The notes: generated from the letters alone by a model not told the origin. A stretch of 64,000 nt of DNA from Patescibacteria group bacterium (GCA_038064575.1 JBBTST010000002.1:9992-73991); one strand, 5' to 3'. Positions 2,481-47,835 are shown, counted from the stretch's first letter. Numbers and translations: made by a program.

Positions 2481-2507
2481 ATGGTACTATACTGACAACT
2501 TATAATT

Positions 2508-6322: not shown

Positions 6323-6324
6323 TT

Positions 6325-7962: not shown

Positions 7963-7993
7963 AGCTTAGGCCAATTGCTTAGGCTTAAAGTTT

Positions 7994-9352: not shown

Positions 9353-9357
9353 AAGCA

Positions 9358-10938: not shown

Positions 10939-10947
10939 TTTAAGCTC

Positions 10948-12045
10948 ATGGGATATTATAAAAACATGAATAAGCCTTTTTTAAAGAGCTTTATTAGAGA
11001 TAAAAGAAAAGTATTTTCTTTGACTCTTGAGGTTTTAGTTTTTGTCTTAATATCATATTTTTTTGGGATAGTTACAAAGGCCAATTATAAAGAGGCATGG
11101 GAGTTTGAGACCAGCGATATGTTTCATGAGTTCCAACAGGCTAATGATGTAAGAGCAGGGCTAAATCCCTATAAAAGAATTCTTTCAGGGGACCTGCTTA
11201 TTAATAAAAAATACGCAACATTATTTCCATTATATTACTATTTTTTGACCTTTGTTGGTTCTTTCTCAAATTACAATTTTGAGATTTTTATTGATCACAT
11301 AAGAACAGTACTTTTTTGGTCCGCACTTTTAGGGTCAGCTTTTTTATACATTTTTTTCAGACAGAAAAATATGAAAGTCCTTGGATTTCTTGCAGTGGTG
11401 CTTTTTTTATTTAATCGATGGAGTATTAATACACTTAGTGATTCAAAACAGGATTTTATAGCAATAGCCTTTTTGATAGTAAGTCTTCATTTCTTTAATT
11501 CAAAACAAAAACTAGCTTATTTATTTTATGGGCTTTCTCTTGGGATAAAGCATCTAGGCATTTTTGTGTTCCCGCTTTTTTTGACACCCTTTATTTATAA
11601 AGAACAAAAACCCAAAAAGTTTTTTTTAAGTTTATTGTTTTTGTTCCTTCCTGTTTTGATTCCAGCTCTTCCTTTTTTATTAAATGATTACAAAGCCTTT
11701 CTCTTTTCTATGCTGTTTTCCTTTACAAGAAAGCCCGCCACAACCAGCATTCCATTTGGTTATGAGAATCTGCTTATTTTGTATAATATTGGAGTTAAAA
11801 ATAATAAAGTAATCTACTACCTTATTCCTAGGATCCCATTACTGTTTTCAATGCTTTTAAATATTTATTTGTTATTTACAAAACGAATCCCTGTCTATTT
11901 TTATCCTGTTGTTTCCCTGTTTTTATTTATATCTTTTAATCCAGTCTTGTTTGATCAATATCTTACATGGGTTACACCGCTCTTGCTTATGGGTGTAGTA
12001 GAAGTATCTGCTGTCAAAAAGGAAAAGGTACATGGAAAAATATAA
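10948..12045 (+). CDS. Polytopic membrane protein (365 aa), possible DUF2029/GT87-like membrane glycosyltransferase
   Basis: Hydrophobic multi-TM ORF in the glycan locus. No definitive motif was found. Confidence 0.35.
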   Translation: MGYYKNMNKPFLKSFIRDKRKVFSLTLEVLVFVLISYFFGIVTKANYKEAWEFETSDMFHEFQQANDVRAGLNPYKRILSGDLLINKKYATLFPLYYYFLTFVGSFSNYNFEIFIDHIRTVLFWSALLGSAFLYIFFRQKNMKVLGFLAVVLFLFNRWSINTLSDSKQDFIAIAFLIVSLHFFNSKQKLAYLFYGLSLGIKHLGIFVFPLFLTPFIYKEQKPKKFFLSLLFLFLPVLIPALPFLLNDYKAFLFSMLFSFTRKPATTSIPFGYENLLILYNIGVKNNKVIYYLIPRIPLLFSMLLNIYLLFTKRIPVYFYPVVSLFLFISFNPVLFDQYLTWVTPLLLMGVVEVSAVKKEKVHGKI

Positions 12046-13330
12046 TATAGTTTGTCTCTCAAATCAGTTTTTTGACCAAGAGTTAAAAACCAATAAATGG
12101 CATATGATGACCAGGCTTTCAAGATTGGGGCACAATGTTGTTTTTGTTGATCCTCCAACAAGGTTTGCCAGGGTTAAACGACTTTTAAAAAGAGAGCTTT
12201 CTCTATTTCACTTTCTAATAGGGCTAAAAAGACATAACGGGGGGAACCTCCTTGTGTATACCCCAATTAATTTGTTTAACTTCAGTCCTTTTTCTATTTT
12301 TAATATTCTGGTCCAAACGCTTAGAATAAATACTTTTCTGAGAAGTTTTGAGAAAAGGAGAACTATTCTTTGGGTTTATCACTTTGACTATCCCGGTCTT
12401 GAAAAGCTCTTGAAAAGAATTAACTATGATTTGTTGGTTTATGATGTTGTAGATGAATATAGTTCCTTTCCTGAATATTTGGAGAAATCAAGTCTTAACA
12501 AGGGTCTTGTGAGAGTTATAGAGTCTTTTGATAACGCGCTAAAGATAAAACTTAACCAGGGAGGATTAAGCGGTAAGGCTTGGGTAAATTATAGAGAAAC
12601 CTTACTGTCAAAATGCTCAGATATCATCTTTGCTACAACTCCTGCGTTAGTAGAAAAGTTTAAGAAATTGTGCATGAAACTTGGGAAAAATGAGAACCTG
12701 GTGTTTTACACTCCCAATTGCGGAGATTACGAGAGGTTTAAAAATTCAAAATCTTACAAAAATGACCTCCCAAATGATTTAGGTACTATTCCCTCTCCTG
12801 TTATTGCAACCGCAGGAGCAATTGACTCCTATAAAATTGATGTGAAACTTATTGAAAAATGTGCAAGAAAGTATCCTCAGTTCTCTTTTGTTTTGATTGG
12901 GCCTAAAAAAGTCTCAGATCCTAATCTTGATCTGACTCAGCTTCTAGCCTCTCCAAACGTTTATTTTTTGGGAGAGAAAAAATTTCAAGATTTGCCAAAA
13001 TACTATGCTGGAATTGATTGTTATTTCATTCCTTACAAGCTAAATGATTATACTTTAGGTGGGTGTTATCCGGTTAAGTTTCATGAAGCGCTGTCTGTTG
13101 GACTTCCGGTAGTGGTTACCAACATGCCTGTATATAAAGATTTTGAAGACATTTGTTATATAGCCAAGTCAGACGAAGATTTTGTTAGTCTAATTGATGT
13201 TGCTTTAAGAGAAGATAGTGATGAAAGGGCAACAAGAAGAAAGATTGTTGCAAGCAAAAATTCCTGGGAAGTGAAAGTTGAGAAAGTTCTTAAGATACTT
13301 GAAGATTATGAAAGTACTGTCTCAAGATAA
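12032..13330 (+). CDS. Glycosyltransferase family 1 (GT4-like), cytoplasmic
   Basis: 432 aa soluble protein. The N-terminal region (…NIVCLSNQFFDQ…HMMTRLSRLGHNVVFVDPP…) and the C-terminal half (…YFLGEKKFQDLPKYYAGIDCYFIPYK…GLPVVVTNMP…) match the GT-B/GT1 fold pattern. Confidence 0.6.
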   Translation: MEKYNIVCLSNQFFDQELKTNKWHMMTRLSRLGHNVVFVDPPTRFARVKRLLKRELSLFHFLIGLKRHNGGNLLVYTPINLFNFSPFSIFNILVQTLRINTFLRSFEKRRTILWVYHFDYPGLEKLLKRINYDLLVYDVVDEYSSFPEYLEKSSLNKGLVRVIESFDNALKIKLNQGGLSGKAWVNYRETLLSKCSDIIFATTPALVEKFKKLCMKLGKNENLVFYTPNCGDYERFKNSKSYKNDLPNDLGTIPSPVIATAGAIDSYKIDVKLIEKCARKYPQFSFVLIGPKKVSDPNLDLTQLLASPNVYFLGEKKFQDLPKYYAGIDCYFIPYKLNDYTLGGCYPVKFHEALSVGLPVVVTNMPVYKDFEDICYIAKSDEDFVSLIDVALREDSDERATRRKIVASKNSWEVKVEKVLKILEDYESTVSR

Positions 13331-13417: not shown

Positions 13418-13897
13418 ATGAAAAGACTGCTCTTTACCTCTTCCTTTCTTGCAATCATAGCCGGATTTATTTTGGTTAGCGGCGCAACGTGGGCTATTTA
13501 CTTTACCTACACTAATATCGCTCTGGAAAACATCACAACTCCCGAAGATGCCTCCATTCCCAACACGCCAGTTCGAGGCCCTCTCACCCTAAAGGCCCAG
13601 GCCGATATTATAAGAATTCACGCGCTTCGCATAGCAGGGGGTAAAACCTACGCCGAAATGCCGCGCCAGATACCAAAACTCGACGAAAAAGGCAACAGCG
13701 TGCTTGATGACAAAGGGAATCCCGTTATGACGGCCAACACGACACGTGATATTTGGGTCACGGCAACAACTCTTAGGACCGCGTTACATTTAGCTATTCT
13801 TACCTACGCTTTTTCAGGTTTTACGCTGTTGTTTGGATTAATTTCAATCTGGACAGGGGTTATATTCTTAGCCTTGAGTAAAAGAAAATTAAAATAG
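13418..13897 (+). CDS. Small membrane-anchored protein (159 aa) in a GC-rich island; unknown function
   Basis: About 50% GC against a roughly 35% background. Own TGnTATAAT-like -10 (tgtataat at 13366-13373) and an SD (gaagga) upstream. Predicted N-terminal TM (LLFTSSFLAIIAGFILVSGATWAIYF) and C-terminal TM (LAILTYAFSGFTLLFGLISIWTGVIFLAL). Confidence 0.55.
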   Translation: MKRLLFTSSFLAIIAGFILVSGATWAIYFTYTNIALENITTPEDASIPNTPVRGPLTLKAQADIIRIHALRIAGGKTYAEMPRQIPKLDEKGNSVLDDKGNPVMTANTTRDIWVTATTLRTALHLAILTYAFSGFTLLFGLISIWTGVIFLALSKRKLK

Positions 13898-14114
13898 CTT
13901 AGTCTTTTTGGGGTTTTCGCTTAAGCTCACTCCGATTACAATCGTAACAATCTGTCTGTCGTTACTACTCTCTATATAGCATAACGGCTTTCCTCGCGTA
14001 GCAGGAAGCTCCAAGCTTTAGCTTGGAGAGGAATGCTGCGAAATATGGTTCATATCTGAACTTTACAGTGTTCGGATTCGTTTTAGAACTCGTGTTCTTG
14101 GTATAATGATTTTA

Positions 14115-15242
14115 ATGGCAAGAATCCTTTTTGTTTCTAATTCTTCGAATCCGGGTGGGATGGAAAAGCACGTTAAAGATTTGGTTGTGGGTATGAGAAA
14201 AAAGAGGCATGAAGTGTTTGTATGGTGTCCTAGTGGCGTCATGGCAGACGTATACGAAAATGAGGGGGCTAAGGTAATTAGGCTTGCTATACAATTTGAT
14301 GTTGACCCCTTTTATATAGTTACCCTCTTTTACTTTCTTATAAGAGAGCACATTGATATAGTACATGCCCATGAGTTGAAAGCCGTTGTGAATTCGCATT
14401 TAGCGGCTTTTTTGGCAAGAGTAAAAGTTAGAATTTCTCACAGCCATACCCCAATTTCTACATGGAAGAAAGCGTTTTTAGGCTCAAAACTAACCTGTTT
14501 TTTTTACTCCACTTTTGTGAATATGTTTTCTACAAGAGAGCTGGCCTTGACTGAACAGATAAGAAAAATCAAGATAAAGGAAGGTATTAAGGCAGAAAAG
14601 TTGATAGTAATCCCGAATGGGATTGATACTAAAAAATATGATATTCCAAAGACGGTGCGTGAGGGTTATAAAAACGAGATTAAGTCCCGATATGGCGTAC
14701 CAAGAGATGCCTTTGTGCTTGGGAATTTATCAAGGCTTTCCATTGAGAAAGGGTATGACACCCTTATTGAAGCTTTTTCTCTACTTAAGGATCCCTCAAG
14801 TTATCTTTTTATAGGTGGGGGCGGGGTTTTAGAAGAAGTGATTTCTGGCAGTGCTAAGAAACTTGGGATATATGAGCAAACAATAATAACAGGACTTTTT
14901 GAAGAAGAAGATAAGGTCAAGTTTTTATCATGTCTTGATTTACTGGTTTTTCCAAGCCAAACAGAGGGCTTTGGTTATCTACCTTTGGAAGGTCTTTGTT
15001 TTGGACTTCCTGTAATTGTTTCTGATATTCCTGCATTAAAGGAGGTGTGTAGGGAATATGTTACTTATTTTAAAAAAGGAAATGCTTTAGATCTTACCGG
15101 CAAAATAAGAGAAGTGAAAGATAAACTTGGCTCTTTCACTTTTGAAGAAGTAGTAAGCTTTATTAACAAAACTTATTCACTAGAAGTGTTTTGGGATTCT
15201 TATAACAGGCTCTATGAAAATTCTCTTTCAAACAAGATTTGA
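14115..15242 (+). CDS. Glycosyltransferase family 1 (GT4)
   Basis: EGFGYLPLEGLCFGLPVIVSDIP matches the GT4 E-x7-E signature. An extended -10 (TGGTATAAT, 14099-14107) lies immediately upstream, so the transcript may be near-leaderless (ATG at 14106 or 14115). Confidence 0.8.
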   Translation: MARILFVSNSSNPGGMEKHVKDLVVGMRKKRHEVFVWCPSGVMADVYENEGAKVIRLAIQFDVDPFYIVTLFYFLIREHIDIVHAHELKAVVNSHLAAFLARVKVRISHSHTPISTWKKAFLGSKLTCFFYSTFVNMFSTRELALTEQIRKIKIKEGIKAEKLIVIPNGIDTKKYDIPKTVREGYKNEIKSRYGVPRDAFVLGNLSRLSIEKGYDTLIEAFSLLKDPSSYLFIGGGGVLEEVISGSAKKLGIYEQTIITGLFEEEDKVKFLSCLDLLVFPSQTEGFGYLPLEGLCFGLPVIVSDIPALKEVCREYVTYFKKGNALDLTGKIREVKDKLGSFTFEEVVSFINKTYSLEVFWDSYNRLYENSLSNKI

Positions 15243-16371
15243 CAGCTTTAAAAATACCGGTGGGGATACTCTTCAGCTTCTTAAAACTAAAGAGGAGCTT
15301 GAAAAACTTGGCTGTGAAGTTGTAATTGACTGCAATTATAAAATCAATTTAAGCACTTTTGATATTGTTCATGTTTTCCAACTTGATTGGACTCCCGAGC
15401 CGTATCTTCAGGCTCTTAATGCCAAAAGACAGGGGAAAAAAATTGTTGTTTCTCCAATTCATCATTCGGAAAAGGAGGTAGTTGAGTTTGAGGAAAGGGT
15501 AAGGTACAACTTCAGGATTCTGGCTAACATGTTTTTAAAAAAACAAGAGCAAAGAGATGTTTTAAAAAACATTTATAGATCAGTTTTTGATACAAGAAAA
15601 TTGTATCCAACCCTGCTTTCTGTGATAGAGGGTTTTAGAAATGAACAAAGGAGTGTGCTTAAGTTTTCAGATGCCGTTTTGGTACAAACCAGAAAAGAGT
15701 TGGAGGATATTAAGAGAGACTTTGAAATTGATGTTTACGCTAAAGGCTTTGTTATTCCAAATGGCGTGGGGGAGAAGTTTTTTTTGACTGAGCAAAGGAG
15801 TCAAGCTCATGAAACGCAGGTTTTGGGAGATGGTTATTTTTTGACTGTGGGAAGAATAGAACCCAGGAAAAATATTATTGCAATTGTAAACGCTGTTGAT
15901 TCCTTGCGTAAGAAAAGTAACCTAGACTTGAATTTAGTAGTTGTTGGAGCTATGAATAAGAACAATTGGGATTACTACTATCATTTTCTTTCAAGAATAA
16001 AAGGTATGTCTTTTGTTAAACATGTAGAACGAGTTCCTTATGATAATATGCCTGGTCTTTATAGAAAAGCTAAAGTTTATGTTTCAGCCAGTTTTTTTGA
16101 AACAAGCGGGCTAACACTCTTGGAAGCAGCCGTTTGTGGGTGTCAGGTTGTTGCCAGAAATGGGGATACAGGAGAAAGAGTAAGGGAGTATCTTCTTGAT
16201 TTTCCATTTTACTGTGATCCTTTTAGTATGGCTTCAATAAGCGATGCTTTGTATGAGGCTTTAAACTCCAAAAAGAAGACTTTCTCCCCTTTGGGCATAG
16301 AAAAATTCAAATGGAGTGCTGTAGCTAAAGAAACTCTAAGCATCTATAATGGACTTATTGGACGGGCATAA
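15214..16371 (+). CDS. Glycosyltransferase family 1 (GT4)
   Basis: FFETSGLTLLEAAVCGCQVVARNGDTGERV is a GT4 C-terminal motif. Overlaps the upstream gene by 29 nt. Confidence 0.8.
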   Translation: MKILFQTRFDSFKNTGGDTLQLLKTKEELEKLGCEVVIDCNYKINLSTFDIVHVFQLDWTPEPYLQALNAKRQGKKIVVSPIHHSEKEVVEFEERVRYNFRILANMFLKKQEQRDVLKNIYRSVFDTRKLYPTLLSVIEGFRNEQRSVLKFSDAVLVQTRKELEDIKRDFEIDVYAKGFVIPNGVGEKFFLTEQRSQAHETQVLGDGYFLTVGRIEPRKNIIAIVNAVDSLRKKSNLDLNLVVVGAMNKNNWDYYYHFLSRIKGMSFVKHVERVPYDNMPGLYRKAKVYVSASFFETSGLTLLEAAVCGCQVVARNGDTGERVREYLLDFPFYCDPFSMASISDALYEALNSKKKTFSPLGIEKFKWSAVAKETLSIYNGLIGRA

Positions 16372-16377: not shown

Positions 16378-19300
16378 ATGTTTTTTTCTGAACTTTTTCT
16401 AGTAATATCAATTTTTGTTTTGTGCCTGTTTTTGGCTCATGAAGACTTGCGCTCAGCTTTTGTCTTCTTACTTTTAGTATCACCTCTTCTACACAAAGAA
16501 GTATTTAGTCTTGTTAGGTGGGACTTACTTCCAATAAGAATTGTAATGCTTTCTATTTTGTTTGTATGTGGGGTTAAGTTTATATTTTTTGTAAAAAAGA
16601 AAAAGCTTTCTCAGATGAAAGAGTACATTAATGATCCACTGCTTATTCTTTTATGCCTCTTGTGGGGGATAAGGCTCCTTTCTCTGATTAACTCTAAGAA
16701 TCTTGGAGCAAGTCTTTTGATTTTTTCATTTTTTACAACTATGGTTTTTCTTTACATTCTTATAGTTTATCTTTCAAAAAAGTATAAAGAGAAATTTGTT
16801 CTGACAAGCATTAAGTTTTATAGTTTGGTTTCTTTGGCTACAGCAATTATTGCCCTGTTACAGTTTTATCTTGACTATAAGTACAAAATAATTTTTGGGG
16901 CTCTTTGGAGAATACCGGGAAAATTATCCAGGGTAGGATCAGTTTTTTGGGATGTAAACCATTATGCAGGTTACATATCCGCTATGATTCCCATAGTAAT
17001 AGGATTGATGTTAGCCTCTAAGACGCTTTTTTCCAGACTATTTTACGCAATTTCTGCCCTTATTATGACAATAGTTTTGCTTTTAACTAATTCCAGGAGC
17101 GCTTGGATTGGGTTTGCGGCAGCTATTACGTTAATTGCTTTAAGAGTGTTTATTCAAAAGTTTGGTTCAAAAAAATTACTTCTGGTTTTTACTCTTATTG
17201 CTGTTGTTTTTGTGTATGGACTCAAGGAATTTAATATAAAAGAGAGTGTGTTTAGAGAAAAGATTAGATCCTATTTTCAATACAGGGGAGACTCATTTGC
17301 CAGCCATTTTATGCTCTTAACGGGTGCTTATCAGATATTTGAGAGCCATCCAGTTTTGGGAGGAGGATACGGAAGCTTTTTTGAGCATTTTAAAGATACT
17401 CCTGTTGCCGCTACTTATTACGCAAGAGATCCTGCAGCTCTTTCAGGAAGAGTTCCGGCTCACAGTATTTGGGGGGAGGTTCTTTCAGAAACAGGATTTG
17501 TTGGATTCACTATATTTGTACTGTTGGTTTTGTTTATTCTTGGAACTGTTTATTACTCCTCAAGAGTTCTTGAAAGTAAAAATAGCATTGGCGAATCAAA
17601 TATGATTTTTTCGTTTGGGTCGGCAATTGTAGCGTTTTTGGTATCCGGTATATTTTATTCCTACAATGCTGAATTCTTTTTTATAATTTTATTTTTAACG
17701 TTTGTTTATGCAAGATTGGTTCTTGGTGAAAAATATGATCCTTTTATTATCTTTTCTTATATTTCTCAGAAAAAAAGTTTTTTGGGTGTGCTGATTCTAC
17801 TTATTTCTACTTTTCTAATTTTTTCAGATCTTGAGAGAAACCATCTAATTCCGTGGGATGAAGCTATATATGCCAAAGTTGCAAAGAATATGGTTAAGAA
17901 CAAAGAATATTTTACTTTGTTTTGGGATTCGTCAAAACCCTGGTTTGAAAAACCACCGCTTTATATGTGGTTTTCGGCACTTTTAATACATGTTTTTGGA
18001 GTCTCGGGTTTTTCTGCTAAGCTGCCTTCAGCAATTTTTGGACTAGGGACGCTTGGTGTTGTCTATATGATTGGAAGAAGACTGTTTGGCGGTTTGACGG
18101 GTTTTTTGGCTGCCATTAGTCTTGTTTCTACGGTTTACTTTTTAAGATATTCAAGAATAGGAATGTTAGATGTTTCAACTACATTTTTCATAGCTTTAGC
18201 TTTGTATTTTTATTATTTTTCTTTAGATTCAAAGGAGGGAAGGTTTAGGTTTTTAGCCTATATATTGAGTGGCTTATCCTGCGGACTTGCTTTTATGACC
18301 AAAGGAGTTGTGGGTTTACTTCCAGTTTTTGTTATTTTAGCCTCAGAAATTTATTTATTGATAACAAAAGAGAAAAAGTTAAATCTTAAATCTTATTGGC
18401 ATTTTATTTTCTTTTTTCTTGTAGCATTTCTTACAATAGCTTTGCCATGGCATTTGTGGATGTTTGTTAAGTATAAATACACATTCCTAAACAGTTATTT
18501 TGGATATCATGTAGTAAAAAGAGTTACGGAATCTATTGAAGATAAGGGGCAGCCTTTTTTTTGGTACTTAGTTGTTTTAAGAACAAGCATGAGATTGTGG
18601 TTTCCGGTTCTGCTTGGTTCTTTAGGGGCTTTTGGCTTTTCAGTTTTGGGTAAAAAAGTTGGTGAAAACACTAAATTTAAGAGCGCGGTTTTCCAATTAT
18701 TTAAAGATTACAACTCCAGAAACAGTGTGTTAATTTTGATTCAGTTTTTGGTAATATTCTCCTTCTTTTCTATCTCCGTTTCAAAGATTATTTGGTATAT
18801 CACACCTTTGTATGTGTCTGCTTCTCTTTTAGTGTCCTACACAATTGTTTACTTTTATGAAAAAGTTTTGTTTAGGATAGATCCGGAAAGAAGGCTAGGT
18901 TATAAATTCATTCTTGTTTTCTTAACTGCAAGCTTTGGGCTTTTTTATCTATTTACTGTTAGACAGCTTGCTTACTTGTCCAATGACACAGGAGCTAAGG
19001 CAAGAATTATTATGGAAAAAGATAGGTTAGTTGGACTGTCTCCAAAACTTTTTTATGATAGGATAGAAAAGCCTTTGGCGGTTTACTATAGTGATGGAGA
19101 GATTCAGGAAATTGACTATACTCCGCTAGTTGATGAGATATCAGATGCCGGTTTTGGTGAGTCTATAGTTTTTATTACCAAGCAGTCAAGGTTTGATAAG
19201 CTTCAGACTAAATTTTCAAATATTACGCTTTTAGCCTCAGATGAAGAATTGAGACTTGGCATAGCCAAATCTGAGAAACAGTTATTAGATGAGGCTATTA

Positions 19301-19467
19301 TAGACCTGAAACTGAAAGTTGATCTAATCATGGACAAGTCTTTAGAGGAAGGCATTTCTTTGGAAGAGGGTAGGAATCTTCTGAATTATCAGAAAAATTT
19401 GGATATGTTAATAAAAATAAGAGAACAAAAGTTAAGTTCTTTTGATGAAAGTGGGGATAAGCAGTGA
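16378..19467 (+). CDS. Fusion membrane protein: O-antigen ligase/Wzy_C-like domain, PMT/ArnT-like GT-C domain, and a C-terminal soluble coiled-coil region
   Basis: 1029 aa. The Wzy_C-like signature …TNSRSAWIGFAAAITLIAL… sits around aa 235-255. A PMT_2/ArnT-like signature …ERNHLIPWDEAIYAKVAKNMVKNKEYFTLFWDSSKPWFEKPPLYMWFSALLIHVFGVSGFSAKLPSAIFGLGTLGVVYMIGRRLFG… sits around aa 485-570. The last roughly 150 aa (EKQLLDEAIIDLKLKVD…) are charged and coiled-coil-like. Confidence 0.7.
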   Translation: MFFSELFLVISIFVLCLFLAHEDLRSAFVFLLLVSPLLHKEVFSLVRWDLLPIRIVMLSILFVCGVKFIFFVKKKKLSQMKEYINDPLLILLCLLWGIRLLSLINSKNLGASLLIFSFFTTMVFLYILIVYLSKKYKEKFVLTSIKFYSLVSLATAIIALLQFYLDYKYKIIFGALWRIPGKLSRVGSVFWDVNHYAGYISAMIPIVIGLMLASKTLFSRLFYAISALIMTIVLLLTNSRSAWIGFAAAITLIALRVFIQKFGSKKLLLVFTLIAVVFVYGLKEFNIKESVFREKIRSYFQYRGDSFASHFMLLTGAYQIFESHPVLGGGYGSFFEHFKDTPVAATYYARDPAALSGRVPAHSIWGEVLSETGFVGFTIFVLLVLFILGTVYYSSRVLESKNSIGESNMIFSFGSAIVAFLVSGIFYSYNAEFFFIILFLTFVYARLVLGEKYDPFIIFSYISQKKSFLGVLILLISTFLIFSDLERNHLIPWDEAIYAKVAKNMVKNKEYFTLFWDSSKPWFEKPPLYMWFSALLIHVFGVSGFSAKLPSAIFGLGTLGVVYMIGRRLFGGLTGFLAAISLVSTVYFLRYSRIGMLDVSTTFFIALALYFYYFSLDSKEGRFRFLAYILSGLSCGLAFMTKGVVGLLPVFVILASEIYLLITKEKKLNLKSYWHFIFFFLVAFLTIALPWHLWMFVKYKYTFLNSYFGYHVVKRVTESIEDKGQPFFWYLVVLRTSMRLWFPVLLGSLGAFGFSVLGKKVGENTKFKSAVFQLFKDYNSRNSVLILIQFLVIFSFFSISVSKIIWYITPLYVSASLLVSYTIVYFYEKVLFRIDPERRLGYKFILVFLTASFGLFYLFTVRQLAYLSNDTGAKARIIMEKDRLVGLSPKLFYDRIEKPLAVYYSDGEIQEIDYTPLVDEISDAGFGESIVFITKQSRFDKLQTKFSNITLLASDEELRLGIAKSEKQLLDEAIIDLKLKVDLIMDKSLEEGISLEEGRNLLNYQKNLDMLIKIREQKLSSFDESGDKQ

Positions 19468-20628
19468 AATTGCAACCAAGGATAGAAAAGAGCTTCCTAG
19501 GTTTGAGAAAGCTACTCCAAAAACCCCAACAGTCTTAATCAAAACTAAGTTAAGAGTAAGTAGTATAAATATTTTCAATAGTTGAACGGTAAAAAGTACC
19601 TTTGTTTTATGAAAAATATAATATATGTTTTCCAAAAATGAGGAAGATGCCGTAAGGGCCGCGCTTATTGAAAGAATATAACTTAATTCTATTAAACTTT
19701 GATACTTGTCATTGAATATAAATTTTAATAAGGGTCCTGTTGCAGCAAGCATTACAAAAAGTGAAAGAACCAGATACACAAGCGGTAAAAAAACAGTTTT
19801 TGAGGTCAGTAGCCCCTTCTTTGTCTGTTGGGCGTTTTTTGGAAGGAAAACGGTAAACAAAGTTAAGGAAGCTAGTGAAAAAATAGTTGATATTTTTTCA
19901 GCCAAAGCAAAGGAGGCAACTTGAGTTAATCCTAAACTGGACTTGATCATTGTGCTATTTATCAAAGGTACTATAAGAATTAATGCTTGAGACACACCAG
20001 CAGGGGTTCCCAGTACAAGGAGCTGTTTTACCTTACCTTTTTCTTCAGACTCAGTCTTGGTTTGAATTGAACTGAGTGCTTTCTTGGAAAAAGCTAATGG
20101 AAATGCAACCAATAAAGAAGCCAGATAAAGAAGAGAGAACTGATAAAAGTTATAGGAAACAACTGAGGCTATGGCAAGTAATGCGAATACAGCTTTTACA
20201 ACTGCAGGCAGAAAGTTTATAAGAGAAGTCTTAAGAAAATCTTCTTTTAGTTGGAATAAGGCAAATAGGTAGTCGTTGATTAAATAGCCTATAAATCCTA
20301 AGGAAAGAGCAAAAAAAGTGTAAAAATCAGAAATTGAAAAAAAGTTGAGGAATGCAAAACACAAAACAAAAGCAACAAGGCCAAAATAAACCTTTAGTTT
20401 AAGAAGTGCTTTTGAATAGTCAGTTTTTTCTTGTATAGAGAGAGTAACAAACGCCGGAGTTGTACCAAGCTCTGTGATTTTGGCAAAGAAGACAAAGCTT
20501 GCTGTTAGTACAGCAAACTTAGCGTAGTCGTCTGTTGGAAGTAATCTTGCAGAGGCTATTAGAAAGATAAAACCCCCAATACCATTTGCTAGGTTGGATA
20601 CGCCAACCATGAGGAGATTTTTTGTCAT
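19432..20628 (-). CDS. Polysaccharide flippase (Wzx/MOP superfamily)
   Basis: About 12 TM helices throughout. The likely start is MTKNLLMVGVSNLANGIGGFIFL… (ATG at 20628); the ORF-track start at 20751 would overlap the divergent GT2 gene. The 3' end overlaps the upstream fusion gene by 36 nt. Confidence 0.65.
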   Translation of the reverse strand: MTKNLLMVGVSNLANGIGGFIFLIASARLLPTDDYAKFAVLTASFVFFAKITELGTTPAFVTLSIQEKTDYSKALLKLKVYFGLVAFVLCFAFLNFFSISDFYTFFALSLGFIGYLINDYLFALFQLKEDFLKTSLINFLPAVVKAVFALLAIASVVSYNFYQFSLLYLASLLVAFPLAFSKKALSSIQTKTESEEKGKVKQLLVLGTPAGVSQALILIVPLINSTMIKSSLGLTQVASFALAEKISTIFSLASLTLFTVFLPKNAQQTKKGLLTSKTVFLPLVYLVLSLFVMLAATGPLLKFIFNDKYQSLIELSYILSISAALTASSSFLENIYYIFHKTKVLFTVQLLKIFILLTLNLVLIKTVGVFGVAFSNLGSSFLSLVAISLLIPTFIKRT

Positions 20629-20683
20629 AGAGAAATCATAGCATTTTTGCCTAAAAGACCCTAAAAAAGGTAGAATTGTATGA

Positions 20684-21637
20684 ATGATCTCTTTAATATC
20701 CACACTTTTCAATGAAAATGAAAACCTGCAGTTGTTTCTTGATGATATCAAGAACCAAACTCAAAAACCTGAGGAGGTGGTTTTTGTTGATGCCGGTTCT
20801 ACTGATGGTTCGTTTGAGTTAATGGCAGGGAAGTTAAAAACACTAGTTAAAGAGGGTTGTAATAGATCTGAGGGAAGAAACCTTGCTATAAATGAAGCTA
20901 AAGGTGACGTTATTGCCGTTTGTGACGGAGGAACAAGACTTGATTCAAACTGGCTTAAAATTCTCACTGCTCATTTCAAAGATCCCAACATTCATGTGGT
21001 CTCAGGGTTTTTTAAACCGGATGCCAGAACCTTTTTTGAAAAATGTTTGTCTAGTGCCACAATCCCAATTTTAGAAGAAATAGAGGAGGAAAAGTTTTTG
21101 CCATCCTCAAGGTCTCTAGCATTCAGACGGCAAGTTTGGAAAGATGTGAAGGGTTATCCGCAATGGCTCCCGGTTTGTGAAGATTTAATCTTTGATATTA
21201 AATTGAAGAAGAACGGCTTTACCTTTAAGTTTGAACCAAAAGCTATAGTTTATTGGAGACCCAGAAAAAATATCCAGGCTTTTTTTAAACAATACTATAT
21301 GTATGCCAAAGGGGATGGGCACGCAAAGTTATGGTTTGCCAGGCATGTGATTAGATATACCGCTTATTTCACCGGCTTGCTTCTAATTTATTTATCTTTT
21401 AGCGTTTCCTTTTTGTGGCTGTTACCTTTTTTTGCAGCGCAACTTGGTTACTTTAGCAAGTTTTATTACAGATATATGGGGCATTTTGAACAAGATCCGG
21501 AGTATAAAATTGGCGCTGCGTTTCCTTTAATATCCTTTCTTGTTGTAACCGGGGATATTGCCAAAATGGTTGGCTATCCAGTGGGTATTTATGAGCGGGT
21601 TACTAAAAAGATTAAATTTGAAGAGTATAGAAAGTAA
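20684..21637 (+). CDS. Glycosyltransferase family 2 with C-terminal TM helices
   Basis: The N-terminal ISLISTLFNENENLQLFLDDI…VVFVDAGSTDGS fits the GT2 pattern (I-S-x-I-x-P-x-x-N-E … hhhhDxxSxD). The C-terminus is hydrophobic (FTGLLLIYLSFSVSFLWLLPFF). Confidence 0.75.
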   Translation: MISLISTLFNENENLQLFLDDIKNQTQKPEEVVFVDAGSTDGSFELMAGKLKTLVKEGCNRSEGRNLAINEAKGDVIAVCDGGTRLDSNWLKILTAHFKDPNIHVVSGFFKPDARTFFEKCLSSATIPILEEIEEEKFLPSSRSLAFRRQVWKDVKGYPQWLPVCEDLIFDIKLKKNGFTFKFEPKAIVYWRPRKNIQAFFKQYYMYAKGDGHAKLWFARHVIRYTAYFTGLLLIYLSFSVSFLWLLPFFAAQLGYFSKFYYRYMGHFEQDPEYKIGAAFPLISFLVVTGDIAKMVGYPVGIYERVTKKIKFEEYRK

Positions 21638-21639
21638 GT

Positions 21640-22560
21640 ATGGTAGATGTTTCAGTACTGATTTTGAATTATAAGTCTAAGGAGTGGGTTTGGAGGAATC
21701 TTACAGCTTTGAAGCAGTCAATTGAATATACTCAAAAGAAGAATGTTACTTTTGAGGTCATAGTTATTGATGGTACTGAGGGCGGTGACGGGACTTGTCC
21801 TATGGTATGGGAAAATTTTAAAGAGTTTTCTTGTTTGGACCTTAAGAAGAATTTGGGTTTTCCAAGTGGAAACAACCAAGGCTTAAAAGTGGCAAAAGGT
21901 AGGTACATTTTGCTACTTAACCCTGATGCATTAGTTGAGGACAACACACTTGCTCAAATGGTGGAGTTTATGGATTTAAGAACTGATGTAGGTGTTGCTA
22001 CCTGTAAGCTTGTGCTATTAAAGACGGGGAAAATTGATCCGGCATCCCACAGAGGTGTGCCTACCCCATGGGCTTCCCTTATGTACTATACTAAGCTTGA
22101 GGCAATCTTTCCTAGATCCAAGTTGTTTGGAGGGTATCATATGGGTTGGGAGGATTTAGAGAGAGAGCATGAAATTGGTGCGTGCGCAGGGTCATTTATG
22201 ATGATAAGGAGGCAGGCTTTGGAAGCTATTGGTGGAAAATTTGATGAAGCATATTATATGTATGCAGAGGATATTGATACCTGTTTTAGGATACTTAAAA
22301 AAGGCTGGAAGATAATGTATTATCCTTATGTTAAATGTTTTCATTATAAAGGGTCCAATTCTGGTATAAAAAAGGAAACTCAAAAAGAAACTTTGGTGAG
22401 TAAAGAGGGTAAGATTAAAGCAATAAATGCCTTTTGGGATGACAATAAGTTGTTTTTTAATAAACATCTTAAGTCCCATCTCCCGCTTTTTGTGACTTAT
22501 CTTGTGTATATAGGGGTGTATGTTAAGAAATGGATTGCGCTTAAGAGATTGCATGTATAG
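21640..22560 (+). CDS. Glycosyltransferase family 2
   Basis: VSVLILNYKSKEWVWRNL…FEVIVIDGTEGGDG…LLLNPDALVEDNTL shows the GT2 DxD-type organisation. Confidence 0.75.
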   Translation: MVDVSVLILNYKSKEWVWRNLTALKQSIEYTQKKNVTFEVIVIDGTEGGDGTCPMVWENFKEFSCLDLKKNLGFPSGNNQGLKVAKGRYILLLNPDALVEDNTLAQMVEFMDLRTDVGVATCKLVLLKTGKIDPASHRGVPTPWASLMYYTKLEAIFPRSKLFGGYHMGWEDLEREHEIGACAGSFMMIRRQALEAIGGKFDEAYYMYAEDIDTCFRILKKGWKIMYYPYVKCFHYKGSNSGIKKETQKETLVSKEGKIKAINAFWDDNKLFFNKHLKSHLPLFVTYLVYIGVYVKKWIALKRLHV

Positions 22561-22581: not shown

Positions 22582-23733
22582 ATGACTTCTGAAATTAGAG
22601 TAGCAATTGTGCATGATGATTTGATTCAGTTTGGTGGGGCTGAGAAAGTGTTTATGGCTCTCCTTGATCTTTATCCTTCTGCTTCTGTTTATACCTCCGT
22701 GATCTCAACCGAATGGAAAGATATACTCCAGAAGAAAAAGATCAATGTTTCAACTTCCTTTATGCAGAGCCTTATAAATGCGGTTTCCTGGAATAGATTT
22801 TATTCAACTTTCTTATTTCATCTGATTGCCTTTGAACGATTTGATTTGTCTTCTTTTGACCTTGTAATTTCTTCCTCCTCAAGATTTGCTCATGGCGTAA
22901 TCACAAAGCCCGATACCAAACACATTTGCTATATGCATTCTCCTGGGAGAATGTTTTGGGAGCAATCAAAGTATTTTGAGAATGAAAAACTAAGTAAAAA
23001 TATCTTTGGAAGAATTGTTTATACTTTGGGTTCTTTTCCGTTGTCTTTTATGAGGCTTTGGGATTATGCCGCTTCTCAAAGAGTAGACATGTTTGTATCT
23101 AACTCTATAGGTGTGCACAATAAAATTACAAGATTTTATCAGAGAGATTCTTCTGTTATCTATCCTTTTTGTGATGTTTCTTACTTTACAGAGCAAGCTT
23201 CTGAGGAAACCGGTTCCAAAGGAGAGTATGGGGAGTTTTATTTGGTGTTATCAAGACTTATTTCTTGGAAGAAAATTGAGATTGCTATTGAGGCGTGTAA
23301 GAAAACAAACAACAAACTCATAATAGCGGGTGATGGTCCTGATAGAAAACGCCTTGAAAAGCTAGCTGGGTCAAACTGCACATTTCTGGGTTTTGTGGAT
23401 GAACCTCAGAAGAAAAAGCTTCTAAGAGATGCTAAAGCTCTTATTCTCACACAGGAAGAGGATTTTGGGCTAACAAGCCTTGAGGCAATGGCTTCAGGAA
23501 CTCCTGTAATAGCATATGGCTTAGGCGGTGCATTGGAAACGGTTGTACCGGGTAACACAGGTGAGTTTTTTTCTCCTCAGACGAGCGCCGCTTTGGCTTT
23601 AATTTTGGAAAAGTTTTCAAGGGATACTTACAAAAGTGAAGTCAGTTTAGCAAGAGCAAAGGAATTTGATAAAACCGTCTTTTTAGGTAAAATGAAGGCC
23701 TTGATTGAAAGCTTCTATGTACCCAAAAATTAA
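22582..23733 (+). CDS. Glycosyltransferase family 1 (GT4)
   Basis: EDFGLTSLEAMASGTPVIAYGLGGALETV is the GT4 signature. An extended -10 (TGGTATAAT at 22563-22571) lies just upstream. Confidence 0.8.
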   Translation: MTSEIRVAIVHDDLIQFGGAEKVFMALLDLYPSASVYTSVISTEWKDILQKKKINVSTSFMQSLINAVSWNRFYSTFLFHLIAFERFDLSSFDLVISSSSRFAHGVITKPDTKHICYMHSPGRMFWEQSKYFENEKLSKNIFGRIVYTLGSFPLSFMRLWDYAASQRVDMFVSNSIGVHNKITRFYQRDSSVIYPFCDVSYFTEQASEETGSKGEYGEFYLVLSRLISWKKIEIAIEACKKTNNKLIIAGDGPDRKRLEKLAGSNCTFLGFVDEPQKKKLLRDAKALILTQEEDFGLTSLEAMASGTPVIAYGLGGALETVVPGNTGEFFSPQTSAALALILEKFSRDTYKSEVSLARAKEFDKTVFLGKMKALIESFYVPKN

Positions 23734-24340
23734 ACGGCTGATGGATATAGCTATATCTTCAACTGCTCTTTTGCTATTTTTTCCTTTTGCTGCCATTTTG
23801 ATGCTTATGATTTTTATAGAAGATAAAGCCTCTCCAATATACCGACAACCAAGAGTGGGAAGGCATAGAAAGCTTTTTAGTTTTTATAAATTTAGATCTA
23901 TGGTGAAAAATGCGGATGAACTTTTATTTTCTAATCCCAGCTTTTTGGAAAGGCTTAGAAGCGGCAATCATAAGATGAAAGATGATCCGAGAATAACAAG
24001 AATTGGAAAATTTATAAGAAAATTTAGTATTGATGAGTTTCCTCAGTTTATAAATGTGTTGATGGGAGATATGAGTTTTGTAGGCCCAAGGCCCTTCAGA
24101 CCTGATGAACTTGAAAAATATGAGAAAAGTGGAAAAGTGTTAAAAGATGCCGTAGACAAGATTTTATCAGTTAAACCGGGAATTACAGGGCTGTGGCAAA
24201 CCGGAGGCAGGTCTGAACTCTCATTTGATGATAGGATTAATATAGAGCTTAAATATGCCACACATTGCTCTCTTATGTTGGATCTGTATATAATCTTTAA
24301 GACGCCGATTGCTGTCTTTCAAGCAAAGGGGGCCTTGTAA
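23717..24340 (+). CDS. Initiating phosphoglycosyl transferase (bacterial sugar transferase, WbaP/PglC C-terminal-domain type)
   Basis: KRLMDIAISSTALLLFFPFAAILMLMIFIEDKASPIYRQPRVG…FYKFRSM…DEFPQFINVLMGDMSFVGPRP is the hallmark of the Bac_transf family. The start may be 23705 or 23717. Confidence 0.85.
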   Translation: MYPKIKRLMDIAISSTALLLFFPFAAILMLMIFIEDKASPIYRQPRVGRHRKLFSFYKFRSMVKNADELLFSNPSFLERLRSGNHKMKDDPRITRIGKFIRKFSIDEFPQFINVLMGDMSFVGPRPFRPDELEKYEKSGKVLKDAVDKILSVKPGITGLWQTGGRSELSFDDRINIELKYATHCSLMLDLYIIFKTPIAVFQAKGAL

Positions 24341-24364: not shown

Positions 24365-26341
24365 ATGACAATCTCAAATTTTTGGAAACCGAGTACTAAT
24401 TTTAAACTTCCTTTTGGTACTGATTTTGAATCCCTTGATCCTAAGAGAAAAAAGCTATTGAAAGTTCTTGGTATAGTGGGAGCTTCGTTTTTTGCGCTTG
24501 CTTTGGTTGTTGCGATTCTTCTTTTTGTTTTTGTTATCAAGCCTTCCTTAGCCGTCTTGTCCCAAGTAAATAAGCTTAAGGAAGATCAGATGCTTGTGCA
24601 AAAAGCTTTTAAAAACCAGGATATAGATGCTATTAATCTGTCTTTGGAAACTCTTAAAAATGATCTGGAAACCCTAAGAAATGTAAGAGACGCTTCCTTT
24701 CCCTGGGCGGCAAAATTTGGACCGTTTGTGAATTATTACACTGATTCAAATCATTTTATTACTGCGGGAACCTTGGCCGTTGATGCACTTAAGGAATTTG
24801 TTGTTGTTGCTGAACCCTTTGCTGATGCTGCCGGCTTTAAGAAAAATGATATTGTTATTACTGATAGCAGTGCCCCATCGGGTTTTGCGGAGGCCTTTGC
24901 AACTTGGGTAAGAATAATGCCGGAGGTTGCAGGTAATATGGATGGGGTAATTGATAAGTTTGACAAGGTAGGTGATGAACTTTCTCTGGTTGATGCTAGG
25001 CGCTATCCGCAGTCTATAAGCGGCTTTCCTGTGAGATCAAACATAGAGGCTGCGCAGCAGTATTTAACACAGGCTTCTGAATATGGCCCAGATATTAAAG
25101 CTGCCTTAACTATAATACCTCCTCTCCTTGGGGTGGGTCAGGAAAAGAGGTACGCAATAATAATGCAAAACGATGCAGAGATTAGGCCAACAGGGGGTTT
25201 TTGGACCAATTATGCTACATTTAGGATCTTAAACGCAGCTTTAAACTCCGATTTCTCCTCCAAAGACATGTATTCAATGGATGAGATTATTGCAACCACT
25301 GATACCATTTACACATCTCCTTTCCCAAAGCCTTTGGCTCCTTATAGAGACTTTCTAAAAGTAGAGCATACTTATGCAAGAGATGCTAACTTTTCTCCTG
25401 ACTTTGTAACTGCAGTTGATAGCTGGATGTGGTATTACAAGTTTGTTGGAAGAATACAACCTCTTGAGGCAAAGCCAATCAATGGGGTTTTTGCTATTGA
25501 CACACATGTTATTGAAGAGTTGTTAAGAGTTACAGGTCCTGTTGATGTAAATGGGGTTTCCTACAGTGCCGACAATGTTGTTTTGGAACTTGAGAAAATC
25601 GCGAGTCTTGGTTTGAAGGAACAACAGGGTAGAAAGAAGGTTTTGGGAGATTTGATGGAATCCATGCTTATTAACATGTATAGGTCTGAGAGTAATTTGT
25701 GGCCAAAGTTTGTGGAAACTGGAATTAGGCTTGCTGTGGAGAAGCACGCTTTTGCCTATGTTTTCCCAACTCAGGATGAGCAGACTGTAAGAGCTCAGGA
25801 GCTTCTTGAAAAGTATAATTTTTCAGGTCGTATTCAGGAGACTAAAGGTGAAGATTATTCTTTTGTGGTGAGCACCAATCTTGGAGGGGATAAAACAAAT
25901 ACTTTTGTGACTAAGGAAGTGGAGCACAAGATTTTAGAGGAAAACGGTAAATGGGTTCATGATGTGACAATTGATTACAAATACGGACAGCCAAAACCTG
26001 GGTATGAACCTTTAGTCACTGTTTATAGAGACTGGATTAGGGTATATGCGCCTTTAGGAGCAAAGCTCTTGGTTTTAGAGGGAAGCGATGCAAAAACGGA
26101 AGCTGATACTGGGGAAGAAAGAGGCAAAGTGTATTTTGCGGGACATTTAACGCTTGCTCCAAACGAGTCAAAAACAATCAGATTTAAATATGAGTTGCCA
26201 GATGGTGTTGTAAAAAGTGGTTTGTATTCCGTCTATTTGCAAAAACAGGGTGGGACAAGTGATGACTTGCATAAAGTTACATTTAACGGCAGAACGATGG
26301 AGGAAAAACTTGTTACTGATAAGACTCTTACTTTCAGATAA
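24365..26341 (+). CDS. N-terminally membrane-anchored extracytoplasmic protein (658 aa), unknown function, last gene of the glycan locus
   Basis: Single N-terminal TM (VLGIVGASFFALALVVAILLFVFVI) followed by a coiled-coil segment and a large hydrophilic domain. No motif recognised. Confidence 0.5.
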   Translation: MTISNFWKPSTNFKLPFGTDFESLDPKRKKLLKVLGIVGASFFALALVVAILLFVFVIKPSLAVLSQVNKLKEDQMLVQKAFKNQDIDAINLSLETLKNDLETLRNVRDASFPWAAKFGPFVNYYTDSNHFITAGTLAVDALKEFVVVAEPFADAAGFKKNDIVITDSSAPSGFAEAFATWVRIMPEVAGNMDGVIDKFDKVGDELSLVDARRYPQSISGFPVRSNIEAAQQYLTQASEYGPDIKAALTIIPPLLGVGQEKRYAIIMQNDAEIRPTGGFWTNYATFRILNAALNSDFSSKDMYSMDEIIATTDTIYTSPFPKPLAPYRDFLKVEHTYARDANFSPDFVTAVDSWMWYYKFVGRIQPLEAKPINGVFAIDTHVIEELLRVTGPVDVNGVSYSADNVVLELEKIASLGLKEQQGRKKVLGDLMESMLINMYRSESNLWPKFVETGIRLAVEKHAFAYVFPTQDEQTVRAQELLEKYNFSGRIQETKGEDYSFVVSTNLGGDKTNTFVTKEVEHKILEENGKWVHDVTIDYKYGQPKPGYEPLVTVYRDWIRVYAPLGAKLLVLEGSDAKTEADTGEERGKVYFAGHLTLAPNESKTIRFKYELPDGVVKSGLYSVYLQKQGGTSDDLHKVTFNGRTMEEKLVTDKTLTFR

Positions 26342-32724: not shown

Positions 32725-32791
32725 GCTTGTATTCACTAATATATATTGGTATAATATATCCATCCAAAACTTTGGAAATAAGAATAAAAAA

Positions 32792-34148: not shown

Positions 34149-34215
34149 ATCACAGAATTGTAACAGAGGTGGCTAGGTGGTTGAAGTTTTAAGTTTGAGA
34201 ACCTATTATTCAAAC

Positions 34216-47309: not shown

Positions 47310-47418
47310 AAGACTACTATACCGAAATAAACCCAAACATGTCAATACTTCTTTGGACTTTTTAGGGTTTTTGTGCTAGCATGCATTGCAATTTCAAGAA
47401 TAGAAAGGAAAGGGAAAG

Positions 47419-47795: not shown

Positions 47796-47835
47796 GGGCG
47801 TTTATGCAGAAATGTATGAACGCCCTATTTTATTA
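47796..47835 (+). terminator. Putative intrinsic terminator closing the GC-rich island
   Basis: gggcgtt-(16 nt loop)-aacgccc followed by tattttatta. Confidence 0.4.

Follow-up and report, generated by a model that had tools for sequence, protein, structure and literature searches.

The 64,000-nucleotide stretch of DNA analysed here, called the window in the following, comes from a Patescibacteria group bacterium of the WWE3 lineage (GCA_038064575.1, JBBTST010000002.1:9992-73991) and carries a gene that joins an O-antigen-ligase-like and an ArnT-like membrane glycosyltransferase (GT) module in a single polypeptide. The gene and its parts, with amino acid (aa) ranges, are:

16378-19467, plus strand: fusion gene, ATG start, 1029 aa plus stop codon, no internal stops
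16378-17742, plus strand: N module (aa 1-455), a WaaL/O-antigen-ligase-like GT-C(B) transmembrane (TM) bundle with a helical extracytoplasmic loop at about aa 287-363
17743-17772, plus strand: linker (aa 456-465, FIIFSYISQK) with a short helix at 455-464, from DSSP of the structure model
17773-18972, plus strand: membrane part of the C module (aa 466-865), an ArnT-like GT-C(A) bundle
18973-19272, plus strand: extracytoplasmic alpha/beta domain (aa 866-965), with strands and helices in the model, the equivalent of the ArnT periplasmic domain
19273-19467, plus strand: variable C-terminal two-helix hairpin (aa 966-1029, helices 966-1026), from the model and the homologue alignment

The open reading frame (ORF) is intact, and both peptides that the initial annotation had quoted for its claim of one 1029-aa polypeptide fusing two enzymes occur in the translation. 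Pfam placed Wzy_C (PF04932) at aa 226-381 (E 6e-17, 62.2 bits, gathering cut-off 31.7), PMT_2 (PF13231) at aa 525-693 (E 1.3e-21, 77.9 bits, cut-off 26.1) and PMT (PF02366) at aa 472-698 (E 1.6e-14, 54.5 bits, cut-off 22.7). Two distinct modules are thus present rather than one overlong ArnT with a single GT-C domain. Wzy_C had been assigned to the N-terminal third; the domain lies there, but the ligase-like module as a whole reaches from residue 1 to about 455 and takes up 44% of the protein. The PMT_2/ArnT signature seen in the middle was borne out by both PMT_2 and PMT, with ArnT as the best solved match. The NCBIfam matches were all sub-threshold: they were to the ArnT equivalog PRK13279 (aa 470-749, 91.2 bits versus a cut-off of 567), with further matches to the IctB family (aa 57-425) and, weakly, to a 'putative O-glycosylation ligase' model. 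As 91 bits stand against an equivalog cut-off of 567, the C module is no ArnT orthologue. No polymerase-type NCBIfam model matched the N module. The fusion had no Pfam match to PMT_4TMC or MIR at E<=1 and is thus no true PMT; nor was a GT25 domain found in it, which sets it apart from WadA-type enzymes.

An AlphaFold model of the fusion, built with an alignment of 36 homologues (A1), reached a mean pLDDT of 87.5 and a pTM of 0.85. The A1 profile retrieved, from the PDB sequences, ArnT of Cupriavidus metallidurans (5EZM, E 2.6e-41, query aa 465-797) and WaaL of the same organism (7TPG, E 1e-3, query aa 226-420). Foldseek also matched the two modules of the model to ArnT (E 7.5e-13, TMt 0.68; 566 alignment columns, target of 537 residues) and to WaaL (E 8e-5, TMt 0.63), the latter being the best structural match for the N module. 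Correspondingly, the N module has the WaaL-type fold, a 12-TM-type bundle with a helical extracytoplasmic loop near its C-terminus, and the C module the ArnT fold of 13 TM segments plus a periplasmic domain; for this module, ArnT outranks PMT as a match in both sequence and structure. The last roughly 150 residues had been described as a soluble coiled-coil tail. This applies to the helical hairpin at 966-1026; residues 866-963, in contrast, form the ArnT-type alpha/beta domain, which lies within the structural match to ArnT and is kept in all 186 homologues of the fusion (see below) at about 30% identity. The domain occurs in a split PMT_2 orthologue (locus L081) as well. The hairpin is present in 96 of the 186 homologues and absent from 45, with a mean identity of only about 11%, and is a variable appendage rather than a defining part of the fusion.

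In the classification as outlined by Meitil et al. (2024), GT-C(B) includes GT121 and uses lipid-diphosphate-linked oligosaccharides as donors, and GT-C(A) includes GT83 and GT39 and uses lipid-monophosphate-linked monosaccharides. By homology, the N half falls into GT-C(B) as GT121-like and the C half into GT-C(A) as GT83/GT39-like. The linker coincides with the boundary at which split orthologues end and begin, and would be cytoplasmic, judging from the topologies of WaaL and ArnT and from the two lysines at 464-465. WaaL reportedly has both termini in the cytoplasm. ArnT has a cytoplasmic N-terminus and a C-terminal periplasmic domain (PMC7801869). Since the one starts and ends in the cytoplasm and the other starts there, the fusion is topologically consistent, and both active sites would lie outside the cytoplasmic membrane.

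Two database searches recovered the same fusion in at least 186 distinct database clusters, 899-1080 aa long and with 27-51% identity, all of which carry Wzy_C plus PMT_2. The names given for these clusters are WWE3 or Patescibacteria throughout, except for one 'Woesearchaeota' record. With one genome taken per GTDB species, a relative of the fusion is encoded in 107 stretches, including the complete genome CP006914. Many of the GTDB records with a WWE3-type cluster are titled 'uncultured Candidatus Saccharibacteria bacterium', and one locus (L068, P0149) is titled 'Candidatus Woesearchaeota archaeon'; these titles are probably generic labels or mis-binned contigs and not a true occurrence outside WWE3. 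Public databases contain an identical protein (P0001) from five contigs. The two halves are conserved to the same degree, their mean identities to the query being 41% (N module) and 43% (membrane part of the C module). A frameshift at around 17.7 kb had been named as a possible source of error; the frame runs unbroken across the A7/T6 run at about 17.77 kb. Together with the identical record and more than 180 full-length homologues of the same architecture, this excludes an assembly or frameshift artefact. Database entries name the family only 'glycosyltransferase family 39 protein' or 'ArnT-like glycosyltransferase/O-antigen ligase', and in the literature searched we found no description of this architecture, in WWE3/Patescibacteria or elsewhere, in line with the initial annotation, which had not recognised it as a described enzyme class.

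Residue conservation was counted over the 186 fusion homologues, with equivalent positions taken from HMMER alignments to the PDB sequences. In the C half, D494, E524, K525, D598, K642, H692, R715, R739, K803, Y807 and Y812 are invariant (186/186), and E495 is kept in 185 with a single Asp. D494/E495, E524/K525, D598, R715 and Y807 align with ArnT D55/E56, E84/K85, D158, R270 and Y345, among which we take D158 and R270 to be functional residues. The roles of D55/E56, E84/K85 and Y345 have been summarised elsewhere (PMC7801869). The C module thus retains the full set of residues that serve ArnT in donor-phosphate binding and catalysis. Seven residues of the N half are invariant likewise (R185, N194, R240, R303, D305, H310 and H362). 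R240 aligns with R191 of WaaL from C. metallidurans (CmWaaL), which binds the phosphate of undecaprenyl diphosphate (Und-PP), and H362 with H313, for which a role in activating the acceptor is proposed (Meitil et al. 2024). The query and 54 other members of the family fit the WaaL motif H[NSQ]X9GXX[GTY] exactly; with Thr allowed at its second position, all 186 do. The position of the ligase His is occupied by His in O-antigen ligases (GT121) and by Asp/Glu in related polymerase families (Meitil et al. 2024); all 186 homologues have His there, and none the Asp/Glu of the GT125-129 polymerases. Judged by these residues, both modules appear able to catalyse a reaction.

A profile search of 1.84 billion representatives for relatives of the fusion yielded about 40 full-length fusion clusters, stand-alone homologues of the N module (428-460 aa) and remote fusions of about 785-855 aa. 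In the contigs of four independent relatives, Wzy_C and PMT_2 are adjacent separate genes in the same order:

L081/L082: GT4, Wzy_C (460 aa), PMT_2 (497 aa), GT4, second Wzy_C (428 aa), Wzx-like
L084: GT4, GT4, Wzy_C (431 aa), PMT_2 (483 aa)
L085: Wzy_C, PMT_2
L086: GT4, GT4, Wzy_C (452 aa), PMT_2 (508 aa), further genes, Bac_transf

The stand-alone Wzy_C protein P0240 aligns to aa 3-455 of the fusion (30% identity, E 1e-64), the PMT_2 protein of L081 to aa 465-941 (35% identity, E 3e-73) and that of L084 to aa 481-820 (38% identity). The GT4 genes upstream of the split genes are orthologues of the window genes GT4b and GT4c listed below: GT4b is found upstream of them in L084 and L081, and GT4c immediately precedes the stand-alone Wzy_C gene of L084 and L085. 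At positions 4640-4665 of L084, Wzy_C and PMT_2 share one frame, with only a TGA and three codons before the next ATG; as only the in-frame TGA intervenes, this pair is one substitution away from the fused form. The initial annotation had taken the fusion to suggest a coupled step, and the adjacency of the orthologous genes in the same order strengthens the functional link between the halves. The existence of split forms also means that the covalent linkage is dispensable for function. In another contig (L087), Wzy_C is followed by a 584-aa protein without Pfam match.

The remote fusions of about 785-855 aa (among them P0244, P0282, P0259, P0305 and P0247 of L083) have the ArnT DE motif replaced (for example by AES, TES or TEG) and the EKPP motif altered. 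The 850-aa fusion of L083 (8001-10553) also sits behind two GT4 genes. By the bit scores of the N module, the 850-aa family resembles the stand-alone proteins more than it does the 1000-aa fusions of WWE3, which hints at two independent fusion events; the 850-aa family may thus represent a fusion of its own. Longer matches in L059, L065 and L080 had looked like an insertion variant, which was rejected: they are due to a second PMT_2-like gene directly downstream of a fusion of normal length. This gene (L059 13050-15161, L065 13044-15269, L080 12966-15185) encodes 700-740 aa that match the ArnT-like half. The three loci are the most divergent of the WWE3 type and lack Wzx, GT4d and the initiating phosphoglycosyl transferase (PGT) downstream.

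The genomic context was compared over 80 loci fetched around relatives of the fusion, to which all synteny counts below refer; a survey of their variable regions covered 114 ORFs from 49 loci, and domain scans of the window covered 41 ORFs. Most of the 80 loci share the order GT4-GT4-GT4-fusion-Wzx, a variable part, and GT4-PGT-DUF4012. The corresponding genes in the window, together with those beyond, are:

7994-9352, plus strand: conserved polytopic membrane protein B452 (452 aa), putative GT of the LA_3751/LA_3752 family (NCBIfam NF047440, E 1.3e-18, below cut-off)
12032-13330, plus strand: GT4a, Pfam Glycos_transf_1, syntenic in 62 loci
14106-15242, plus strand: GT4b, Pfam Glycos_transf_1 and Glyco_transf_4, syntenic in 69 loci
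15214-16371, plus strand: GT4c, assigned by Pfam, 3' end 7 nt before the fusion start, syntenic in 71 loci
19432-20751, minus strand: Wzx-type flippase (Polysacc_synt, PF01943, E 1.5e-13), about 10 TM segments, syntenic in 58 loci
20684-22560, plus strand: two GT2 glycosyltransferases, assigned by Pfam and NCBIfam, in the strain-variable part, present in 2 and 15 loci, respectively
22582-23733, plus strand: GT4d, assigned by Pfam, syntenic in 52 loci
23705-24340, plus strand: initiating PGT of the small WbaP/PglC type (Bac_transf, PF02397, E 1e-62; EPS_sugtrans, E 2e-74), syntenic in 49 loci
24365-26341, plus strand: DUF4012 protein (PF13196, E 1.4e-18), syntenic in 46 loci
30910-32724: PBP2-like transpeptidase
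33111-34148, minus strand: LCP (LytR-CpsA-Psr) protein (PF03816, E 4.6e-30), 14 kb from the fusion
34177-35598: phosphogluco/mannomutase

The Wzx gene is convergent with the fusion gene and overlaps its 3' end by 36 nt. B452 is encoded directly upstream of the GT4 genes in 54 of the 80 loci; its weak match to the fusion profile (76% probability) covers aa 546-653, within the ArnT-like half, and it is probably another GT-C(A)-type enzyme of the cluster. The region between fusion/Wzx and GT4d is variable: among its 114 ORFs were 63 GT4, 11 GT2 and some dTDP-rhamnose genes, and none encoded Wzy_C, Wzz/polysaccharide co-polymerase (PCP) or GtrA. Neither a Wzz/PCP gene nor a second Wzy_C gene was found in the cluster of the window. 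Genes for ArnA/B/C/D and lipid A synthesis were absent from the 41 window ORFs scanned, as were the arn genes from the 114 variable-region ORFs. The DUF4012 protein has one N-terminal TM segment, a short coiled segment and a large outside domain, and could act as a chain-length factor, an export factor or an acceptor. Past it follow genes for RecO, a class II aminoacyl-tRNA synthetase (provisionally ProRS-like), MraZ and MraW; with the PBP2-like, LCP and mutase genes (30910-35598) just beyond these, the glycan cluster abuts a division/cell-wall region. The LCP protein is a possible alternative consumer of the same precursor, LCP proteins being the canonical ligases of Und-PP-linked polymers to peptidoglycan.

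Taken together, we favour a reading in which the fusion is a bifunctional enzyme of two GT-C modules that combines WaaL-type ligation with ArnT-type single-sugar transfer in a Wzx-dependent envelope glycan pathway of WWE3, and we put the probability of this reading at roughly 55%. Judging from the gene content, the PGT and four or more GT4/GT2 enzymes would build an oligosaccharide on Und-PP at the inner face of the membrane, which Wzx would then flip to the outer face. There, the N module (aa 1-455) would take over the Und-PP-linked glycan and transfer it with inversion, where we favour en-bloc ligation to a membrane-anchored acceptor, in the way that WaaL uses lipid A-core and pneumococcal TacL a glycolipid, over the polymerisation of repeat units. 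The C module (aa 466-965) would move a single sugar from a polyprenyl-monophosphate carrier onto the same glycoconjugate, either before ligation, as an attachment sugar comparable to that added by the GT25 domain of WadA, or after it, as a decoration; both steps would take place at the outside of the cytoplasmic membrane. The analysis shows the two-module architecture with its folds, the invariant active-site residues, the place in the cluster and the adjacency or fusion of the genes in relatives. The two donor classes, Und-PP-oligosaccharide for the N module and polyprenyl-monophosphate sugar for the C module, are inferred from homology; ligation rather than polymerisation, the nature of the acceptor and the sequence of the two reactions are predictions. 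Ligation is favoured because the invariant His stands within a WaaL motif, WaaL is the best structural match, only ligase-type NCBIfam models were hit, no co-polymerase was found and GTs are many: the clusters encode at least 5-7 cytoplasmic GTs each, which fits one large oligosaccharide. In Gram-negative bacteria, WaaL and ArnT, the closest solved homologues of the halves, both act on lipid A-core at the periplasmic face. By analogy, this makes a membrane-anchored acceptor shared by the two modules an attractive idea.

Several observations weigh against ligation by the N module or against the coupling of the two activities. Wzy_C has been reported in 82% of the Wzy enzymes that make beta-linked O-antigens, and the domain alone does not discriminate between ligases and polymerases. 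The rule of His versus Asp/Glu is a published hypothesis and no proven discriminator. The second phosphate-binding Arg of CmWaaL, R265, aligns with H310, an invariant His, instead of an Arg; R303 (invariant) and R293 (mostly conserved) are close by and might take its place, but naming either as the equivalent would be a guess. No Wzy_C-type domain other than that of the fusion was found in the cluster, and an N module of the Wzy type together with the nearby LCP protein would complete a standard Gram-positive Wzx/Wzy pathway. The main gap concerns the C module: the window and the variable regions of the 49 loci yielded no polyprenyl-phosphate-sugar synthase (GtrB/ArnC/Ppm1-like) and no GtrA-type flippase, which leaves the donor supply of the ArnT-like half unaccounted for locally. 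Finally, in one related cluster (L088), which ends with Bac_transf and DUF4012, no PMT_2 gene adjoins Wzy_C, so the two activities can be separated. As in the window, the DUF4012 gene of L088 (7538-8516) lies next to the PGT gene.

Some of these points feed a possible, though in our view rather doubtful, alternative in which the N module is a Wzy-type inverting polymerase of repeat units, the ArnT-like module adds a side-branch sugar from a polyprenyl-phosphate carrier to the polymer during or after its growth, in the manner of GtrC-, YfhO- and GacL-type GT-C enzymes, and the LCP protein (33111-34148) attaches the polymer to peptidoglycan. Within the Wzx/PGT/GT cluster, the fusion is the only membrane enzyme that would use an Und-PP-linked glycan, B452 resembling the ArnT-like half rather than a Wzy, so that without its sole Wzy_C a standard Wzx/Wzy pathway has no polymerase. 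The nearby LCP gene and the frequency of Wzy_C among polymerases forming beta linkages agree with this, and the solitary Wzy_C of L088 would suit a core polymerase whose decorating partner is optional. The two Wzy_C paralogues of L081 (8001-13507), of 460 and 428 aa, each have the His motif; the first stands before PMT_2, the second before the Wzx-like gene, and they could be a ligase and a polymerase. Against a polymerase stand the invariant His in a WaaL motif in place of the Asp/Glu of related polymerase families, the structural match to WaaL and the lack of any hit to a polymerase-type NCBIfam model, as well as the failure to find Wzz/PCP in the cluster or the variable regions, and the high number of GTs per cluster, which suits a single long oligosaccharide better.

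If the N module is a ligase, a further reading would make the fusion a 'prime-and-ligate' machine, complete in itself, for the assembly of a membrane-anchored lipoglycan in these ultra-small monoderms, a proposal that we make only tentatively and consider speculative. The ArnT-like module would place a sugar from a polyprenyl-phosphate carrier on a lipid of the outer leaflet, and the WaaL-like module would ligate the Wzx-flipped oligosaccharide onto that sugar. Many bacteria of the Candidate Phyla Radiation (CPR) are reported to lack lipid synthesis, and the membrane lipid might be scavenged from a host. Should this be true, two GT-C folds in one chain, both with their sites on the outer face, would carry out an assembly step resembling those of lipopolysaccharide or lipoteichoic acid, and the fusion would be a second, mechanistically distinct bifunctional class after WadA and a lineage marker of the WWE3 envelope.

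A two-step O-glycosylation of proteins, with the N module as an O-oligosaccharyltransferase of the PglL/WsfB type, the C module of the PMT type, and S-layer, pilin or other surface proteins as targets, appears improbable. PglL-type O-oligosaccharyltransferases belong to the same Wzy_C family and have the catalytic His in common, the 'putative O-glycosylation ligase' model was weakly matched, and WaaL has been proposed, in a preprint, to glycosylate a protein adhesin in A. actinomycetemcomitans; but the fusion lacks the PMT_4TMC and MIR domains of true PMTs, the conserved cluster showed no recognisable gene for a glycoprotein substrate such as an S-layer protein or pilin, and the DUF4012 protein is not Ser/Thr-rich. 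Hardly credible, lastly, is a non-functional fusion, whether it arose by misassembly or a frameshift or is genuine but has one half reduced to a decayed, inactive passenger: the A7 and T6 runs in the junction DNA and the separate halves of relatives, once with just a stop codon between them, would allow for it, but conservation effectively refutes it, with five contigs giving an identical protein, full-length fusions in no fewer than 186 clusters and in 107 species-level genomes, among them CP006914, a complete one, and halves of equal conservation (41% and 43%) whose key residues are invariant or nearly so.

How far does the favoured two-module enzyme resemble known systems? With WaaL of C. 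metallidurans (PDB 7TPG/7TPJ; GT121, GT-C(B)) the N module shares Pfam Wzy_C. It differs in that the identity is only about 15%, the R265 equivalent is not aligned to an Arg, and a second GT-C enzyme is fused to it; moreover, the host is a CPR bacterium of the monoderm type. As no lipid A/core biosynthesis genes were seen among the window ORFs scanned, the acceptor would be one other than lipid A-core. The C module has invariant or nearly invariant equivalents of the residues of ArnT, the undecaprenyl-phosphate-L-Ara4N:lipid A transferase (PDB 5EZM/5F15; GT83), and by homology would share its polyprenyl-monophosphate-sugar type of donor. Unlike in ArnT, a ligase-like module precedes it and, in half of the family, a helical hairpin follows, and genes for Ara4N or lipid A synthesis were not seen among the ORFs scanned. 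For the decorating option of the C module, there are parallels in GT-C enzymes of the GtrC/YfhO/GacL type, which transfer single sugars from undecaprenyl-phosphate carriers onto a surface glycopolymer outside the cytoplasm. These enzymes stand alone and rely on a GT2 synthase of their own (GtrB/CsbB/GacI), often together with a GtrA flippase, whereas neither partner was found near the fusion.

Three further systems offer a comparison for the N module. Like the fusion, WadA of Brucella and Mesorhizobium (GT25 plus GT121) unites an O-antigen-ligase-family module with a second glycosyltransferase of the same pathway in one polypeptide. Its partner domain is a soluble cytoplasmic GT25 of the GT-A type that uses a nucleotide sugar, lies N-terminal to the ligase and has its active site across the membrane from that of the ligase; in the fusion, a GT-C(A) module of the 13-TM type follows the ligase-like one as its partner, and both sites are predicted to face outside. 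The GT25 domain adds the sugar onto which the WadA ligase attaches the glycan, and WadA was, to its authors' knowledge, the first bifunctional O-antigen ligase identified (Servais et al. 2023). TacL, the lipoteichoic acid ligase of Streptococcus pneumoniae, can be likened to the fusion by its description as a Wzy_C-family protein in a monoderm. It moves an Und-PP-linked polymer flipped by a Wzx-type protein onto a membrane glycolipid, and the LCP enzymes of the same cell use the same precursor, a precedent by which LCP and a Wzy_C ligase can share one precursor. Unlike the fusion, TacL has a single module (397 aa), and its pathway a separate polymerase. With the Wzy_C-bearing Wzy polymerases (GT125-129, clan GT-C1), the N module would have in common the clan, the architecture, the Und-PP-oligosaccharide donor and the inverting mechanism, and the fusion gene likewise adjoins Wzx, PGT and GTs; it is set apart from them by its invariant His, where Asp/Glu is reported for GT125-129, and by the lack of a co-polymerase gene nearby.

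The fusion, built from two well-known families, is probably functional across the lineage, with its chemistry read from homology. The cell envelopes of CPR/Patescibacteria are almost unknown biochemically, and the fusion is central to the most conserved glycan cluster of WWE3, near genes for division and the cell wall. A tandem of a ligase-type GT-C(B) and an ArnT-type GT-C(A) module would be the second kind of bifunctional enzyme in the O-antigen-ligase family, and the first with both sites on one side of the membrane; were it a polymerase with a decorating enzyme, it would merely be a tidy fusion of operon genes. In the manner of a Rosetta stone, the fused and split forms connect many uncharacterised stand-alone Wzy_C and PMT_2 genes, and lead to the prediction that the members of such a pair share an acceptor and may associate in a complex. 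A naturally fused pair would also be a convenient target for cryo-EM and glyco-engineering.

Two sets of candidates for missing functions were rejected. The GT2 encoded at 20684-21637 has two C-terminal TM segments and was considered as the donor synthase, but its best families are of the MftF/EpsD/PgaC type and not GtrB/ArnC/DPM1, and only 2 of the 80 loci carry the gene. The ORFs 7994-9352 and 6325-7962 were considered as a separate Wzy; profile searches against the PDB sequences gave nothing for either, and in profile-profile comparison 7994-9352 matched the ArnT-like half weakly and 6325-7962 gave no assignment. ORFs 2508-5993 and 9358-10938 had no meaningful match to the PDB sequences.

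These four ORFs belong to a row of six successive polytopic proteins (706, 1161, 545, 452, 526 and 365 aa; window positions 360-12045, plus strand) upstream of the GT4 genes, each with 6-13 hydrophobic segments. Almost none has a Pfam match, with PMT_2 just below cut-off in 9358-10938, and they are probably a battery of uncharacterised GT-C-like enzymes. The 6325-7962 gene is conserved in 27 loci, the 7994-9352 gene in 54. Compared with most related loci, the window has extra genes between the 452-aa protein and GT4a (9358-12045), namely those for the weak PMT_2 protein and the 365-aa protein. The latter has six segments and no counterpart in the 80 loci, and such a membrane protein of unique sequence might represent a divergent polymerase. 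Another strain-specific addition is a 159-aa ORF (13418-13897) between GT4a and GT4b.

A scan for promoters and terminators over 11.5-27.5 kb gave counts no higher than in shuffled sequence, and the 64 kb contain no tRNA genes. Elsewhere, the window has the ordinary housekeeping content of a small genome, with LexA, a UvrD-like helicase, UvrB, a class A PBP, UvrA, a transglutaminase-like protein and UvrC at 46689-62020, and its GC content is about 0.31-0.41 throughout.

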